Below are positions 2,187-11,033 of a stretch of DNA of 47,146 bases, in pieces. The position numbers and the translations under genes were made by a program. The notes beneath the pieces are model-generated. The model was not told where the DNA came from. It saw only the letters and a list, made by a program, of their open reading frames with translations, and ran no database searches. The first letter of the stretch is position 1, and every line of letters starts with the position of its first letter. This DNA comes from a virus. Taxonomy: Duplodnaviria; Caudoviricetes. The stretch is taken from positions 1 to 47,146 of IMG/VR virus record IMGVR_UViG_3300044878_000075; one strand, given 5' to 3'.

Positions 2187-3439
2187 TATTTGGCCTCCTG
2201 ATCAGCGGAGTTCAGGCTGTAGCCTTCGAACTCGTCTTTTGCGTTGGTAGCAGGGGTGCCGCTAACGATGCCGGCTGCGGTTTGGCACTCGGCATACATC
2301 TTATCCAGTGCCTCGCCGGACAGAGCGTTGGCGACAACTTCGCCGAACTTCTTGCCGACAACTTCGCGCTTGTCTTTCAACAGCAAGTCGGAGTTAGCCT
2401 GCAATGCTTCTTGCAGTGATTTTACTTGAGCCTCTGAAGAGTTCAGCTTGAGGTTCACTGCATCAACTGCTGCGCCCACTGCCTTATCAACGATGGCCTG
2501 AACTTCTTCAGGGGTCATATCTGTTTCCTCGGGGGTATTAACCTGCACAACAGGCTGTTTAGTTTTGGTACTGAATAATTGTACCATGGCTTTTAAATGC
2601 GCCATGAGACTGTTGGTTTTCACCTTGTACGACGTTTCCGCAACTACTGTTCGCGACTCACCAGTTAGAATCGGGTTGTCGCCTTCAAAGTGATAGTCAA
2701 TCGAATACATGCCTTCTGGAGTGCAATACACCAGCGCACGATCATCGAAATCTTGCACGTATGCGTAAGAGTCAGAAGTGGCGAATCGCTCCTTGACTGC
2801 ATCGCTCAAGATGGCTAGCTTCTCGCCGTATGAGTCGTCTAGGGCGTCTTCGTTGATCACAGGAACGGCAGAGTTAATAACGAACGTCTTGTTTACCATC
2901 ATGCCAACGCCGTCTTCTGGAGTTGCGGCGCCGATTTCGCCGATCAAAATAGCGTCATGGTCGAAGTTCATATTGCGGGCGATCCACTCGTGACCTTCCG
3001 CATTAGGCGTCATTTCGCGTTCAAGGAAGATGCCGGTTGATGTGTGGATTGGTTCGCCCTTGTTGATAGCCTCAAGCAGCTTGCGACCGCCCTCGGTATT
3101 CTTGGCAAACTCAACGTCAATCATCTTCTCTACAGAGATGCGATTGCCTACGCGCTTAACGTTGCGGTTCCAGGCGCCTACGTGATACGAGTTGATCGCG
3201 TCAGGCTGTTGCGCGCTGACGTACTCGCCATTCACTTGCGGATGGCCTAGAGGCGCTAGAGTGCCTTCTAGACTGGCGTAGGACTTCTCGATCTCGTCAT
3301 GCGGATACAGGCCTCCGTTCATTACTACGCCATCTGGCAAAGTAAACGACGGGACCACGATATGCTCGCGACCGTTATGCTGCTCGCGTCGAATAGAGGC
3401 AGCGTTTACGGCTACTCGGACGTTTACGCGGGTATTCAT
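2186..3439 (-). CDS. Prohead protease/scaffold (DUF2213-like)
   Basis: LGHP and DHDAIL..G motifs, coiled-coil C-terminus; likely start ATG 3439 with GAGG SD (alternative 3448). Confidence 0.85.
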   Translation of the reverse strand: MNTRVNVRVAVNAASIRREQHNGREHIVVPSFTLPDGVVMNGGLYPHDEIEKSYASLEGTLAPLGHPQVNGEYVSAQQPDAINSYHVGAWNRNVKRVGNRISVEKMIDVEFAKNTEGGRKLLEAINKGEPIHTSTGIFLEREMTPNAEGHEWIARNMNFDHDAILIGEIGAATPEDGVGMMVNKTFVINSAVPVINEDALDDSYGEKLAILSDAVKERFATSDSYAYVQDFDDRALVYCTPEGMYSIDYHFEGDNPILTGESRTVVAETSYKVKTNSLMAHLKAMVQLFSTKTKQPVVQVNTPEETDMTPEEVQAIVDKAVGAAVDAVNLKLNSSEAQVKSLQEALQANSDLLLKDKREVVGKKFGEVVANALSGEALDKMYAECQTAAGIVSGTPATNAKDEFEGYSLNSADQEAK

Positions 3440-3516
3440 TAGATCCATTCCTCTTCATTGGTGCACGAATCACCAAATCCAACGAACAGATCCCAATCGA
3501 TTTCTTTCATTTTCAC
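3439..3516 (-). CDS. 25-aa acidic peptide (MKMKEIDWDLFVGFGDSCTNEEEWI) coupled to the protease gene
   Basis: GGAGGG SD 8 nt before GTG 3516; TAATG overlap with protease ATG. Confidence 0.55.
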   Translation of the reverse strand: MKMKEIDWDLFVGFGDSCTNEEEWI

Positions 3517-3544
3517 AGGGCTAACCCTCCAATAGATAGCCACT

Positions 3545-3553
3545 ATTCTACCA
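3545..3553 (-). promoter_or_regulatory. Extended -10 promoter TGGTAGAAT for the head operon
   Basis: Same 9-mer as upstream of the portal gene (4277-4285). Confidence 0.6.
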
Positions 3554-3556
3554 GAC

Positions 3557-3586
3557 AAAGAAAACCCCGCCGAAGCAGGGTCTTTT
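3557..3586 (-). terminator. Intrinsic terminator (UUCG loop), possibly bidirectional
   Basis: ACCCTGC-TTCG-GCGGGGT-TTTCTTT on minus; TCTTTT on plus side. Confidence 0.8.
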
Positions 3587-3602
3587 GTGTTGCGGTTAGG
3601 AG

Positions 3603-4220
3603 TTATGGGCGTCGGACGAACTTGATAGTCGCGCAGTCCATGTCAGGCCACCCATGACTAATTCTTATTGGCATGTCGGCGTCATAACCGGCCTCTTCAA
3701 CTTCAAGGATTGCATATTCTCCATCATTAATGTCGCAATCATTGATGACGCTTACAATATCTCCAACCTTCCAATTCCGCCAATCGCTCATATCAACATC
3801 AGTCGCATAATCCTGCATCGCCTTCTTGCTATCCGTCTGCATCATCAGGCCTTCTGCATCGAGCAACTGAACATTCCTCTCAATCTCGCGCTCGCAGTCT
3901 TCGATGATTGCTTGGCAGTGGATGATTGTGTCGCGCCACTTGATTGGGCCGTCGATTTGGTGCCATTGCTCCCCGAAAGTAACCGAGTCATCAGTCATCG
4001 GAGTTAACTCCAAAAGCTCAAGGTTGCACTCGCGGATGTATTGGTTCTCGTGATCTTCGTCTACTACGTAGACACAGCCATGCTCATGATCATGCTTGCA
4101 CACGCGAACCGTATGAATAGATCCAACACGGCACCATTCCCCTTGGCTGCGACGTACGACCTTGACCGAATCGCCAGCGCTGAACTTGTGCGGGAAAACC
4201 TCTTTCAGTGTTTTAGGCAT
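3603..4220 (-). CDS. Hypothetical early (moron-like) protein
   Basis: ORF with CGGAGGGG SD, own sigma70 promoter and terminator; start re-called at ATG 4220. Confidence 0.8.
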   Translation of the reverse strand: MPKTLKEVFPHKFSAGDSVKVVRRSQGEWCRVGSIHTVRVCKHDHEHGCVYVVDEDHENQYIRECNLELLELTPMTDDSVTFGEQWHQIDGPIKWRDTIIHCQAIIEDCEREIERNVQLLDAEGLMMQTDSKKAMQDYATDVDMSDWRNWKVGDIVSVINDCDINDGEYAILEVEEAGYDADMPIRISHGWPDMDCATIKFVRRP

Positions 4221-4247
4221 CACAACCCCTCCGTTTAATGTCCGCAA

Positions 4248-4285
4248 ACCTTAGCCGTAATCCGATTCCACGTCAATGGTAGAAT
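4248..4285. promoter_or_regulatory. Divergent pair: TTGACG-17-TAAGGT (minus) and TGGTAGAAT (plus, portal)
   Basis: Consensus matches at 4271-4276/4248-4253 and 4277-4285. Confidence 0.7.
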
Positions 4286-4311
4286 GGACATAATTTACGA
4301 GGCCCTATTTT

Positions 4312-5685
4312 ATGACTGTCAATGCACCACCTGAATTGATGATGGCGCTCAACAACCTAGCTGAGCGGCAGATTGCTGCGTCACGTCAGGCTGCGGCGGC
4401 ATTCAGCACTGGAGCGCTGGATACGAAGCGCCCACGAGCTTACTGTGAATATGGGTTCCCCGATAACCCGTGCTTTGACGAGTTCTATCGTGTATACAAG
4501 CGTCACGGTATCGGTCACGGCGCCTTGATGCAGGTTTTGGATAAGACCTGGCAGACACCGCCTTGGATTCTGGAAGGTGAAGACGAGTACGACGAAACCC
4601 GAGACGAGACGCAGTGGGAAAAAGACGTTAAACGCCTCTTCAAGAAGAAAAGCATTTGGTGCGCAATCAAGGAAACCGACAAGCGCAAGATGGTCGGTGG
4701 TTATGCTGGTATGATCATTCAGGTAAAAGACTCTAAGCAGTGGAATCAGCCGCTTGGCAATATCAGTGCAGCAGCTATCGTGAAGTTCATTCCTGCTTGG
4801 CGTGGATCGCTTGAGATTGCCGCGTGGGACAACAATCAGACTAGCCCTACTTACGGCCAGCCATTGATGTATACCTATCGCGAGCATAGCGAAGCTATCG
4901 GTGATTCGCCGCGCATGGTTGAGATGCATCCTAGTCGCGTGATTATCTTCGGCTCTATCACTGAGCCTGAGTCAATCTTCGAGCCAGTACTGAACGCCCT
5001 GATCAGCCTTGAGAAAGTTACAGGTGGATCCGGCGAGGCTTATATAAAAGCCGCCGCACGAGCAATCCATATCGGGTTCGACAAGGACACAAATTTGCAG
5101 GACCTGGCGAGAGCCCATGGCATGCAGATGTCGGAAATCGGCACCTTGTACGATTCCGTGGTGGATGGGTTAAACCGAGGGATTGACTCTGCGATTGTTA
5201 CTCAAGGTGGTCAAGTCTCCGCAATCGCTTCTGCCGTACCTGATCCTACCGCTCCGTTTCAAGTAAACCTTGAAGAGACTGGTGCAGGTATGCAGGTCCC
5301 GTCAACGATCATCGTTGGCCGGCAGACTGGCACGCTCGCAAGCAATGAGGATGTGAAAGCGTTCAACCGCTTTGGTCAAAGTCGCCGTGAGAATGAGGTC
5401 GGACCTAACTCCCGTCTCGTCGTTGATTGGCTGATGGATCATGGCGTGATTGAGCGTCGCGAAGATTACGAGATTATGTGGGACCAGCTTACAGAGTCTA
5501 CTGACGCCGAAAAGTTGCTGAACGCAAAAACCATGTCTGAGGTGAACGCCCAAATGCTCAGTTCGGGCCAGCCAGTGTTCAATGTTGATGAGATTCGGGT
5601 TGCGGCAGGGTACGAGGCAGAGGTCGAGCTTGATCCTCTGCCTGATATCGAGCCGCCGCCAGAAGATCAAGCGGCCGTGCAATAA
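4312..5685 (+). CDS. Portal protein (DUF1073-like)
   Basis: 457 aa; EYGFP, GGSGEA and G.QTG.LAS.ED motifs; followed by head morphogenesis gene. Confidence 0.9.
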   Translation: MTVNAPPELMMALNNLAERQIAASRQAAAAFSTGALDTKRPRAYCEYGFPDNPCFDEFYRVYKRHGIGHGALMQVLDKTWQTPPWILEGEDEYDETRDETQWEKDVKRLFKKKSIWCAIKETDKRKMVGGYAGMIIQVKDSKQWNQPLGNISAAAIVKFIPAWRGSLEIAAWDNNQTSPTYGQPLMYTYREHSEAIGDSPRMVEMHPSRVIIFGSITEPESIFEPVLNALISLEKVTGGSGEAYIKAAARAIHIGFDKDTNLQDLARAHGMQMSEIGTLYDSVVDGLNRGIDSAIVTQGGQVSAIASAVPDPTAPFQVNLEETGAGMQVPSTIIVGRQTGTLASNEDVKAFNRFGQSRRENEVGPNSRLVVDWLMDHGVIERREDYEIMWDQLTESTDAEKLLNAKTMSEVNAQMLSSGQPVFNVDEIRVAAGYEAEVELDPLPDIEPPPEDQAAVQ

Positions 5686-5687
5686 TC

Positions 5688-5709
5688 AAGCCCCTACGGG
5701 GGCTTTTCT
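5688..5709 (+). terminator. Hairpin/terminator after portal
   Basis: AAGCCCC-TACG-GGGGCTT-TTC. Confidence 0.65.
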
Positions 5710-5723
5710 AATTAGAGGTAAGC

Positions 5724-6626
5724 ATGGCAGGTAGCCCGATTCTCCCGCGCTCAGCAACAGACCCAACCGGCCAAGACTCCCGAGAGCGCAAGGCAATCAA
5801 AGACTTCGACCGACGAGTTAGCGCAATCGGAAAAGAAGTCCTGCGCATCCTTGGCGAGCAGAATTACACGGTCGTTACGCTGAATGCGCTTGAGATCAAC
5901 GCAAGCACGTATCAATTCCAGCTAGACCAAGCGATCCTGGCTGGCATCAACTCCGAGATTGAGCGAATCTGCAATCTGATCTTGCTGGAAGGTGGCGAGC
6001 AGGATCTGTGGTTCATGCGCGCATACGTAGAGCCGGCGTATCAACAAGGGACGGCAACTACTGCGGCTAACCTGACAGTCCAATCAGAAGCCTACGCACT
6101 AACCAAGCCAACCCTAGACGCAATCCTATTCAGCCCACCATATCGCAAGCGGATCAGCCTGTTAGCCGCTCGCGAATTCGAACTGATGCAAGGATTCAGC
6201 CAGCAGATGAAATCGGATCTTGCGCAGACGTTAACGCGAGGGATGATTGCAGGCCAGAATCCGAGGGTGATCGCTAAGGACATTCAGGAGCGCACAGGCG
6301 TTAACCGTTCGCGTGCTGAGCGGATTGCGCGGACTGAGGTTACTAACTCTTTTCGTCAGGCGCGCATGGACGAGGCTCAGGCGGCGCAGGTTGATTTGGG
6401 TATCAATACCAGGCTTATGCATATCAGCGCCTTGTCGCCCAGCACGAGACCATCGCATCGCGCTCGTCATTCGCACATATACACTATTCAGGAAGAGAGA
6501 GACTGGTGGGCAATCACGCCGAATATGATCAACTGCAAGTGCTCGACGGTAGAGATCTTGGTTGATGAGAAAGGTAATCCACTCTCTCCCGCCATTGTCG
6601 AACGAGCCAAGCGCAAGCTGAAATAG
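5724..6626 (+). CDS. Head morphogenesis protein (SPP1 gp7/Mu F family)
   Basis: RAERIARTE, TRPSH..RH and NCKC motifs. Confidence 0.9.
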   Translation: MAGSPILPRSATDPTGQDSRERKAIKDFDRRVSAIGKEVLRILGEQNYTVVTLNALEINASTYQFQLDQAILAGINSEIERICNLILLEGGEQDLWFMRAYVEPAYQQGTATTAANLTVQSEAYALTKPTLDAILFSPPYRKRISLLAAREFELMQGFSQQMKSDLAQTLTRGMIAGQNPRVIAKDIQERTGVNRSRAERIARTEVTNSFRQARMDEAQAAQVDLGINTRLMHISALSPSTRPSHRARHSHIYTIQEERDWWAITPNMINCKCSTVEILVDEKGNPLSPAIVERAKRKLK

Positions 6627-9568: not shown

Positions 9569-9889
9569 TCACGCGCTGTCGACTTTTTTCTCTAGCCAGC
9601 GCTTGAGTACGGCTTTGACTGGTCCGATACCGTAGCCAGCGAATACGCCAGCAAGGACGAATACTAGCGACTCACTGAATCCCATTGCTTGGAGTGAGTA
9701 GCCGCTGATCACAACTAGGATCGGGGTTGCCAGTACGTCGGTCACTCGCTCGCTAACGGTTCGCCCGTCTTGCTTGAACGCCATAATCAAGGCCAGAAGC
9801 AGGCCTAGAATAGAGGCTCGAACGGTGTCGGGCATGCTATGCCACAAGGCAATCCAGTTGTTCGGGTCTTTTTCAGGCATTTTGGTCAT
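9569..9889 (-). CDS. Holin, lambda S-like, with MTKM dual start
   Basis: 106 aa, three hydrophobic segments, charged C-terminus, MPEKDP N-terminus. Confidence 0.85.
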   Translation of the reverse strand: MTKMPEKDPNNWIALWHSMPDTVRASILGLLLALIMAFKQDGRTVSERVTDVLATPILVVISGYSLQAMGFSESLVFVLAGVFAGYGIGPVKAVLKRWLEKKVDSA

Positions 9890-9929
9890 CGCAGGATGTC
9901 TAATTTAAGGAATGTATCCATTTAGACTA

Positions 9930-9938
9930 ATGGTATCA
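9930..9938 (-). promoter_or_regulatory. Extended -10 TGATACCAT for holin-terminase operon
   Basis: Matches the TGnTAnnnT class seen upstream of other late genes. Confidence 0.5.
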
Positions 9939-9982
9939 CTTGCGGTTCGGTGGCTAGTGGCTATCAATTTTTGTCGGGCAAT

Positions 9983-10636
9983 AAAAACCCCTCAGCACAC
10001 TATCAGGATCTCTGAATCATGCGAGAGGGGCCGTGTTTTTGCACATAACAGGAGACGGTTTTAGCCGTGTCGCCGAGGTGGAGTCCTGCGCTCTTCGCTC
10101 GACCAGTTGCCGCGTGTGCGGTCATGGCGAAGTTGACGTAAAACTACGCTACCTCTCGCCTCGTCTTTCGTAGCGGAACCAGATCCTAAGATTTCCTGGC
10201 ACCCTAGCTGAATAGGCTGGTCTACTCGTCAGCGTCTAGCTGGGCGTTAAACCATACTAGATCCGTACTGCATTACAGGAAGGTCGCACCGTTCGATTAG
10301 CTCTGGTTTTAGCCAGGGGTCTCAAACCGCCAAACTGTTGCTATGGCGCCGCCTTCGATAGAGAGTGTATTCCTCTATCCGTCCATGACTTTGAGCAAGT
10401 CCTAGGCCGCCTAATACACAACGGTTCTCCTAGCTGGTCTTACGCTGCAAATCCACTAGATACAGTCACGAAAGGAACTATATCACAAACATCACCTGCG
10501 TCTCACCTTACGCCGAGTCTTTCCGCACGCTATCTCGCCGAGGTTCCTTACGTGCTGCGACAGGTTATGCGACTTACGAGCCGCAAATCGAGCCCGAATA
10601 ACGAGTGGCTAGGACGGCCTGCACTGGAACCAGGCG
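9983..10636 (-). ncRNA. Putative large structured ncRNA(s): ~650 nt, or ~150 nt plus ~490 nt
   Basis: No ORF >=60 aa in ~900 bp; many stems relying on minus-strand G-U pairs; promoters at 10642-10650 and 10477-10485; U-tailed hairpin 9983-10030. Confidence 0.65.
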
Positions 10637-10641
10637 TGAGA

Positions 10642-10692
10642 ATGATACCACGAGCGCGAAAACGCTAATATTCTGGCTGATTAGCGCGAAAA
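10642..10692 (-). promoter_or_regulatory. Extended -10 TGGTATCAT with two upstream TTTTCGCGCT direct repeats
   Basis: Repeats at 10653-10662 and 10683-10692, 30 bp apart. Confidence 0.55.
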
Positions 10693-10710
10693 GTGTAATT
10701 TTATTGGCAT

Positions 10711-10743
10711 AAAAAAAGCCCATCGGACGGTTCACGATGGGCT
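10711..10743 (-). terminator. Intrinsic terminator of the leftward early operon
   Basis: AGCCCATCG-loop-CGATGGGCT followed by T-run. Confidence 0.9.
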
Positions 10744-10790
10744 AAAGGTCTTACATCAGCGGAGGGGGACGCCGATTCTGTAAGGCGGTA

Positions 10791-11033
10791 TCAGTGGATG
10801 CCGCGCTGTTGAGTGGATTGTACACTCTTTTTGTACATCGGGGCGACTTTTATTCGAAGCTCAAGCTCATGCTCCATGTCTGAATTCGAATAAACGAACT
10901 GCCGCAACTTGTCGCACGCCTCATCATCCATCTTTAACCCTGCACGAAACCGCTCATACCGCGCATACCCAAGCTCGCACATGGTCATCATAGCCATAGT
11001 GTTGATTTGTTCTAGGTCGTTGATTGTGGTCAT
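10791..11033 (-). CDS. Hypothetical protein
   Basis: 80-aa ORF with GAGG SD, last gene of the operon. Confidence 0.75.
   Translation of the reverse strand: MTTINDLEQINTMAMMTMCELGYARYERFRAGLKMDDEACDKLRQFVYSNSDMEHELELRIKVAPMYKKSVQSTQQRGIH

Follow-up and report, generated by a model that had tools for sequence, protein, structure and literature searches.

A gene-free stretch of several hundred nucleotides in a tightly packed phage genome raises the question of what it encodes: one large structured RNA, as a first-pass annotation had proposed, or something of another kind. The window analysed here is the whole 47,146-bp record, a complete virus genome with direct terminal repeats, whose gene set is of the long-tailed phage type. 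No integrase was found among the 64 ORFs scanned, the best capsid matches of cultured phages are about 51% identical, and no prophage relative was found in GTDB with the capsid as query. The host would be Pseudomonas, as deduced from where the modules described below occur. Elsewhere in the window, portal and head-morphogenesis genes (4312-6626, plus strand) are flanked by minus-strand head and terminase genes and form an inverted block in the packaging region.

The gene-free gap and its signals

The gap (9890-10790, 901 nt) has the length of about 900 bp first claimed for it and is the longest stretch without ORFs of at least 60 aa, followed by stretches of 250 and 177 nt. The 80-aa ORF at its upstream border (Table 1) matched no PHROG or Pfam family, and in relatives the array occupies the same site, between this ORF and the holin gene. 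The 658-nt stretch proposed as the RNA locus had no match in cultured phages or in E. coli genomes. It contains -10 elements of the sigma70 type, and a terminator at either end insulates it. Both extended -10 elements of the first-pass annotation are found in the sequence, although a consensus scan called one promoter where 1.1 were expected by chance; likewise, the upstream hairpin with its U run is present (10743-10711), but the scan called neither minus-strand terminator. The long U-tailed 3′ hairpin folds well, as had been claimed. A TATAAT hexamer lies ahead of the same module start as the internal element at 10477..10485 in L005 and in one contig of run X4, and this element is likely a promoter that was brought in with the next cassette.

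Table 1. Features of the gene-free gap and of its borders, in the order of minus-strand transcription
Feature	Position	Strand	Evidence and occurrence
80-aa ORF, function not assigned	10791..11033	-	Upstream border, conserved in relatives
Upstream intrinsic terminator-like hairpin and U run	10711..10743	-	Sequence; similar hairpins in relatives
Extended -10 element TGGTATCAT, predicted main array promoter	10650-10642	-	TGnTAnnAT at array start in 14/18 related loci tested
Module M1, two hairpins	10568..10636	-	4/25 phage-group loci, always first; no bacterial source traced
Module A, closed stem and internal pseudoknot, commonest module	10494..10565	-	21/25 phage-group loci, 3/3 megaplasmid arrays
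Internal extended -10 element TGATATAGT	10485-10477	-	Called by consensus scan at chance level
Short module a	10452..10470	-	4/25 phage-group loci and L049
Module D, about 175 nt, multi-stem	10272..10448	-	Orphan relative of RNA convergent to predicted nuclease genes in Pseudomonas
Module H, hammerhead-like words	10165..10268	-	9/25 phage-group loci, L049, 2/3 megaplasmid arrays
Module B, hairpin and internal loop	10126..10160	-	5/25 phage-group loci; z -3.12
Hairpin q, CCGC-4 nt-GCGG, short, recurrent	10110..10121	-	9/25 phage-group loci, twice in two
Module E, pseudoknotted RNA of about 60 nt, orphan copy	10042..10106	-	57/58 nt identical to Pseudomonas caricapapayae copy
Long terminal hairpin and U tail, predicted array terminator	9983..10031	-	z -3.39; close variant ends array in L022
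Holin-like gene	9569..9889	-	Downstream border; small and large terminase genes next; phrog_126, phrog_606, phrog_3717

Further inspection of the upstream side revealed a hairpin that precedes the upstream terminator (10745-10780, minus strand, and the same place in L005-L032), in which an exposed, anti-Shine-Dalgarno-like CCCCUCC loop is kept and the stem varies. The loop of the terminator itself, GUGAACCGUCC, is conserved in relatives too. This hairpin and terminator region gave sub-threshold Rfam matches to anti-hemB and Betaproteobacteria toxic sRNA, and the hairpin may be a further small RNA.

The ten stem pairs that had been named are all present in the minus-strand sequence, ARAGORN found no tRNA or tmRNA, as had been stated, and the Rfam scan yielded no family at gathering score; an E-value scan gave sub-threshold matches only, three of four on the upstream terminator. 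Nor did any module or native bacterial copy match an Rfam family. Contrary to what a large RNA would lead one to expect, the minus strand folded with a z of -0.76, with 4 of 20 shuffles equally good, and the plus strand with a z of +0.27. Among six internal modules only B fell below z -2 under a fold model that leaves out pseudoknots. A large RNA is thus not supported by energy alone, and support comes from homologues: compensatory changes were found in modules A, D and E, and they uphold the earlier view of a minus-strand, non-coding locus that acts at the RNA level, is absent from Rfam and is not a DNA element. Regarding expression, 22 runs share 5-20% of words with the stretch, as contigs only and from mostly DNA-like libraries, and eight of them were compared with the window. 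The sole contig of RNA run X2 on 19 kb covers 10107-10363, inside the array, but it cannot be read as expression because the runs were picked with this same stretch and three of the four runs in the contig comparison are probably DNA.

A mosaic of modules in phages and megaplasmids

The organisation of the locus became apparent from its relatives. A search with the large terminase fetched twelve viral loci, eleven of them at 97-99% identity, and the DNA of these loci at the array site is similar to the window in blocks only. Further loci of the phage group were added by pattern scans. Described with 19 motif labels, beside which unlabelled modules exist, the resulting 25 loci (some near-duplicates included) display 19 different module strings between the conserved promoter site and the terminator. 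The order in the window is M1-A-a-D-H-B-q-E, other loci read A-s, X-E-u, X-A-K-Z-t-u or tRNA-tRNA-A-a-D-H-q-s, and the smallest arrays have two detected modules. Contig joints in other samples coincide with the module borders 10110, 10168/10494 and 10470. Modules also occur outside this phage group, since L049, a contig of an unrelated phage with unlike flanking genes, has a-D-H and three Pseudomonas megaplasmids carry arrays of the form A-R-D-W-(H)-Y. When the megaplasmid array was compared with phages, the best 40 of 893 matches covered terminator-like ends only, and two other arrays compared with plasmids matched only pPL1 and, weakly, one more.

Several additional observations were made on these loci. 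The megaplasmids with A-R-D-W-H-Y arrays measure about 1 Mb (L034 5790-6510, NZ_CP143488.1; L070; L072), and solo copies of module E are found elsewhere on the Pseudomonas megaplasmids (L036, L037, L051, L053). Two tRNA genes per array stand ahead of the modules in some phage relatives (L012 1456-1612; L121 1834-1986; L022). L118 (3350-) and L122 (2215-) pair the array and the same small terminase with a different large terminase, and the phage group is therefore wider than the terminase search showed. Module K, which is absent from the window, is a 35-nt H-type pseudoknot with compensatory changes (L006 3610-3649, L010, L011, L012, L025, L119), and we take it to recall type III antitoxin repeats by size and layout; a short hairpin in L006 (3590-3620) presumably resembles a type I-F CRISPR repeat.

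An important consequence of this mosaic is that the single multi-domain RNA originally proposed is largely refuted, and we leave it very little probability. GOLLD and ROOL, the class to which it was likened, are large ornate phage RNAs described as single conserved folds (10.1101/2024.12.08.627333). The locus resembles them in its several hundred non-coding phage bases and in the tRNA genes near it in some relatives, its stems are dense over 650 nt from one promoter to one terminator, and the block 10110-10548 is spanned by single contigs in other samples. Unlike GOLLD and ROOL, however, the array has no conserved overall length, order or content, and it has no Rfam covariance match, including to these two. 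Neither the folding energy (z -0.76) nor the existence of 19 different module sets, some of only two modules, agrees with one large molecule. It is not one large RNA because relatives delete, add and replace whole modules and because E and D stand in bacteria as small RNA genes in their own right, each with a promoter-like site and a terminator. Similarly, the long-range pair CGUGACU(10470)/AGUCAUG(10390) of the first-pass annotation exists as two complementary strands, but it is not obligatory, since its two modules occur without each other in relatives (L005 has the first alone, L122 the second alone). A DNA-level element, namely a packaging or replication signal, might be thought of for a site that adjoins the holin and terminase genes just upstream of them. 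This explanation is scarcely credible, given that the content is interchangeable among phages with 97-99% identical large terminases, that the pairing needs G-U pairs and pseudoknots possible on one strand only, and that the modules are promoter-terminator units in bacteria.

The individual modules differ in how far they could be followed. In module A, 9 of 24 pairs changed on both sides, three of them in the pseudoknot helix, and 97.7% of cells are paired, which none of 500 shuffles equalled; the structure was proposed from the very sequences tested, which are related. No real match outside arrays and no bacterial partner of A was found in 151 genomes, a single new genome match being rejected for lying inside a coding gene, and a metagenome scan returned six loci, all of them phage arrays. 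Searches for M1 and a used the whole stretch that contains them, and a stretch resembling a stands alone before a terminator in megaplasmid pPL1 (L038). Module B had no match at three or fewer mismatches in 401 genomes and its source was not traced; it may resemble a retron msr stem. Hairpin q is possibly a linker or a recombination site. Its identification as a CRISPR repeat was unsupported, with the exact 13-nt pattern at chance level in 121 genomes and no array-like cluster among the matches listed.

Module H gave rise to another explanation, that the array is a chain of self-cleaving ribozymes or processing signals with H as a hammerhead. The invariant hammerhead core consists of CUGANGA, GAAA and UH with stems I-III, and the window contains the corresponding words CUGACGA-GUAG...CUAC-GAAA, as does L012. 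In contrast, two positions, the A after CUGACG and the G of GAAA, are missing from L034 and L072, and L049 and L120 change the A of CUGA. Moreover, GCUGA pairs instead with a downstream UCAGC, a pairing maintained by compensatory change. With core positions varying in homologues and no Rfam ribozyme match, H was rejected as a hammerhead, and a ribozyme chain is very improbable. A model of H gave 13 weak matches (22-30 bits) in 151 genomes, with no convincing homologue and no bacterial partner: twelve lie inside long ORFs, and L149, which overlaps no listed ORF, is of unconvincing likeness. The most H-like match, L139, was not accepted, as it overlaps a 563-aa ORF on the other strand.

Bacterial genes beside modules E and D

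Two modules of the window also exist in bacteria outside the arrays. A GTDB scan for module E gave five Pseudomonas matches, alone in two megaplasmids and just 3′ of one gene in three other genomes. There E has a TTGACA-type promoter and a terminator downstream of a gene for a 334-aa protein, and forms a small RNA gene of its own. Among 105 homologues of this protein many carry PF02452, the PemK/MazF family of Pfam, and its predicted model (pLDDT 85) gave 42 Foldseek matches to MazF structures with E values up to 0.001, the best at 6.8e-6. The MazF/Kid fold is shared by ToxN-type toxins. Searched by sequence against PDB, the partner proteins gave coiled-coil or noise matches only. Starting from the E-partner protein, 36 GTDB loci with 29-100% protein identity were collected, and the E profile matched strongly in 11 of them. 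A strict stem-and-pseudoknot descriptor, written after viewing the sequences and with 3 of the 36 loci as its discovery set, matched downstream of the gene in 24 loci and nowhere else in the 385,122 nt of the same loci; in the window it has one match, at 10103. The other 12 loci fail both the strict and a relaxed descriptor, a similar unit being visible by eye only. The 401 sampled genomes contributed three further E matches, two beside the whole gene and one beside its last 26 codons, and the paired bases in the stems of E vary together between genera. In the 36 loci, the upstream ORFs within 160 nt included no small one that is conserved, and because no protein antitoxin candidate is conserved beside the gene, the RNA is the likeliest inhibitor of the MazF-fold protein. 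The MazF-fold family had no match in the complete 47-kb phage record.

Two viral contigs carry another E-RNA subfamily (L187 1490-1560; L188 430-500) and no MazF-fold gene in the fetched flanks; in L187 this RNA stands ahead of lysis-like genes. At the flanks of one native E locus (L054) lie a gene for an Mrr-type nuclease and a match to PADLOC DitA (616-1497 and 3138-4727, minus strand), a defence-island-like setting.

A covariance model of module D, built from phage and plasmid copies only, matched 13 of 151 genomes, comprising one megaplasmid array and 12 solo copies that each end in a terminator. Six solo copies face a convergent gene: one PemK (E 1.8e-9), one Abi_2-like gene that is below the Pfam cut-off and matches PADLOC PD-T4-5 (E 1.9e-9), and four genes of one unnamed family. 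As a lead, the ESM Atlas places this family with PBECR1 nucleases (score 0.96, PF18809 on 14% of cluster members). For the other six solo copies there is no such nuclease gene within 1.5 kb. The reverse test started from the PBECR1-like family, for which 30 of 32 places in 401 genomes were fetched. D was found convergently in 22 of these 30, four of the 22 being discovery loci and three copies in one genome, and seven of the remaining eight show a longer D variant by eye. Across 23 phage, plasmid and chromosomal copies, 25 of 32 pairs of D changed on both sides in an alignment fitted to the model. The native matches score 30-52 bits against 120-138 for phage and megaplasmid copies, which points to a diverged subfamily in the latter whose own cognate gene is unseen. 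D partners had no match in the complete 47-kb phage record, and the PADLOC defence models gave no convincing match to the MazF-fold and PBECR1-like families. The exact D pattern had no match in GTDB; an 18-nt D pattern gave eight matches with dissimilar flanks, which were treated as chance. Of the chromosomal D copies without a nuclease gene (L126, L128, L129, L131, L133, L135), several are neighbours of one and the same conserved gene, where insertions apparently recur. It is possible that chromosomal copies of this kind are anti-addiction relics.

Module Y of the megaplasmid arrays behaves in a comparable manner. The array matched 56 records, and Y itself matches plasmids of several genera. 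In four of six records opened, a solo unit is convergent to a related gene of about 180 aa, and in two no such gene is annotated; the partner family has no Pfam or PADLOC match and a sub-threshold NCBIfam match only. Loci L060-L065 show Y RNA and such a convergent gene of about 180 aa on plasmids from several genera, some small and of the ColE1 type, others larger. Module Y and this gene are a third candidate protein-RNA toxin system, possibly an addiction module.

Origin and possible role of the array

The anatomy of the locus is modular and shuffled, modules A, D and E covary, E is linked to MazF-fold and D to PBECR1-like genes, and both protein families are absent from the phage. What the phage carries are orphan copies of protein-linked RNAs that have lost the protein gene, have been joined behind a single promoter and are reshuffled. 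We consider it rather probable that the locus is a recombining cassette array of short RNA modules, with at least two toxin-less copies of RNAs that stand beside predicted ribonuclease toxin genes, and that it likely gives a multi-specific antidote transcript against several host protein-RNA toxin systems. The native bacterial pairs would be type III-like toxin-antitoxin systems in which the RNA binds and inhibits the protein, and would restrict phages or enforce plasmid maintenance. The array would be transcribed from the 10650 promoter to the 9983 terminator, and each module would fold alone and bind its cognate toxin once the host RNA supply fails. On the analogy of the PhiTE pseudo-ToxI, a phage supplying the RNA would keep the toxin blocked, the array would cover several toxin systems and be updated by recombination, and megaplasmids might be protected likewise, or become immune to rival addiction modules. 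The tRNA genes inside arrays fit an anti-defence locus. About eight modules make up the window's array, and samples of 151-401 genomes, all from one genus, led to bacterial loci for two of them; the untraced M1, A, a, H and B may share the same origin. None of these conclusions depends on the unpublished genome G104.

The closest precedent is the pseudo-ToxI of PhiTE, reported as a phage-borne copy of an RNA antitoxin without its toxin, gained or expanded by recombination, that suppresses abortive infection (Blower et al., 2012; PMC3475682). The two have in common that the phage carries the RNA without the toxin gene, as the complete 47-kb record documents here. PhiTE, however, repeats one antitoxin against one system, whereas here about eight unrelated modules from undescribed pairs are fused and reshuffled and are common to megaplasmids, with a predicted antidote role. 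In type III toxin-antitoxin systems, an RNA inhibits a ribonuclease until infection frees it (PMC12283969, PMC13064643), and the families named there are ToxIN, CptIN, TenpIN, AbiQ, AbiF, AbiV and AvcID (PMC12283969, PMC13064643, PMC10511110). The native pairs are alike in combining a predicted ribonuclease toxin and a pseudoknotted RNA with promoter and intrinsic terminator, with no protein antitoxin seen; at the native E locus the linked ribonuclease-fold gene and the pseudoknot RNA with its terminator are both present, and the activity is predicted. In contrast to ToxIN and TenpIN, whose RNA forms tandem repeats ahead of the toxin within one operon, E is a single downstream unit with its own promoter, D is convergent on the other strand, and the E partner, at 334 aa, has extra N- and C-terminal parts. 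The pairs are not members of ToxIN, CptIN, TenpIN or AbiQ because they have no upstream tandem antitoxin repeats.

In habit, the nearest to the native RNAs are the drum, skipping-rope and DUF3800-I to XI motifs, structured RNAs that end in a 3′ terminator, accompany a single protein family in one orientation or the other, and whose function was left open (Weinberg et al., 2017; PMC5737381). They differ in their partner proteins, and the part of that article available describes no orphan arrays. The RNA anti-CRISPRs (Racrs, solitary CRISPR repeats; PMC10651486) and phage single-guide mimics (bioRxiv 2026) are small RNAs of phages that imitate the RNA component of a host defence complex. No module of the window was shown to match a CRISPR repeat, q having been compared by genome pattern counts. 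No description of such an array or of the E and D gene pairs was found in the literature, an earlier one being possible in closed papers or in the supplement of Weinberg et al. (2017).

The main rival to the antidote reading holds that the bacterial RNAs are scaffolds, sensors or activators of the nuclease and that the phage copies are decoys that soak up the protein or the trigger. Gene linkage alone does not tell whether the interaction is positive or negative, D is large, ornate and common to three folds, and similar protein-linked, terminator-ended RNAs have been described with no function offered in the part of the article available (Weinberg et al., 2017; PMC5737381). That D faces three unrelated folds is also odd for a fold-specific inhibitor and counts against an antidote. 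On the other hand, phage copies that serve as decoys of an activator should have been altered; E, however, shares 57 of 58 nt with the native copy, as expected for a working antidote, and the MazF-fold gene has no conserved candidate for a protein antitoxin next to it. On balance we regard scaffolds and decoys as unlikely. More doubtful still is that the modules are passengers, small RNAs captured at a moron and tRNA locus where recombination is frequent and kept with no anti-defence purpose, or selfish elements. The site in relatives does take up tRNA genes and small ORFs, and orphan D copies persist on chromosomes, but passengers would hardly explain why, in elements of three independent kinds, the partner genes are left out and the RNA cores, without the terminators they once had, are joined behind a single promoter, or why compensatory change maintains the pairing.

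Within the antidote reading, a bolder version can be put forward only tentatively, as we hold it to be possible but rather doubtful: that the array is an RNA-only anti-defence island of Pseudomonas phages and megaplasmids in which each module was captured as the antitoxin of another, in most cases undescribed, protein-RNA toxin system and D is a promiscuous antitoxin scaffold for MazF, BECR and HEPN nucleases. If so, the arrays would be a catalogue of RNA-controlled defence systems, with more than 10 such modules among the 19 motif labels. In conclusion, the array is real, RNA-level and modular. The RNA counter-defences known from phages each mimic a single system, and a shuffled multi-specific array, if true, would be a new organisation of counter-defence that is invisible to protein-based anti-defence screens. 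Tracing an orphan module to its native gene offers a method of system discovery; it exposed two undescribed protein-RNA pairs, a MazF-fold protein with a 60-nt pseudoknot and a PBECR1-like protein with a 175-nt RNA, with module Y as a third candidate. These pairs bear on the old question of the role of protein-linked, terminator-ended RNAs such as the drum and DUF3800 motifs, and suggest a much greater variety of RNA-controlled toxins than the few type III families represent.
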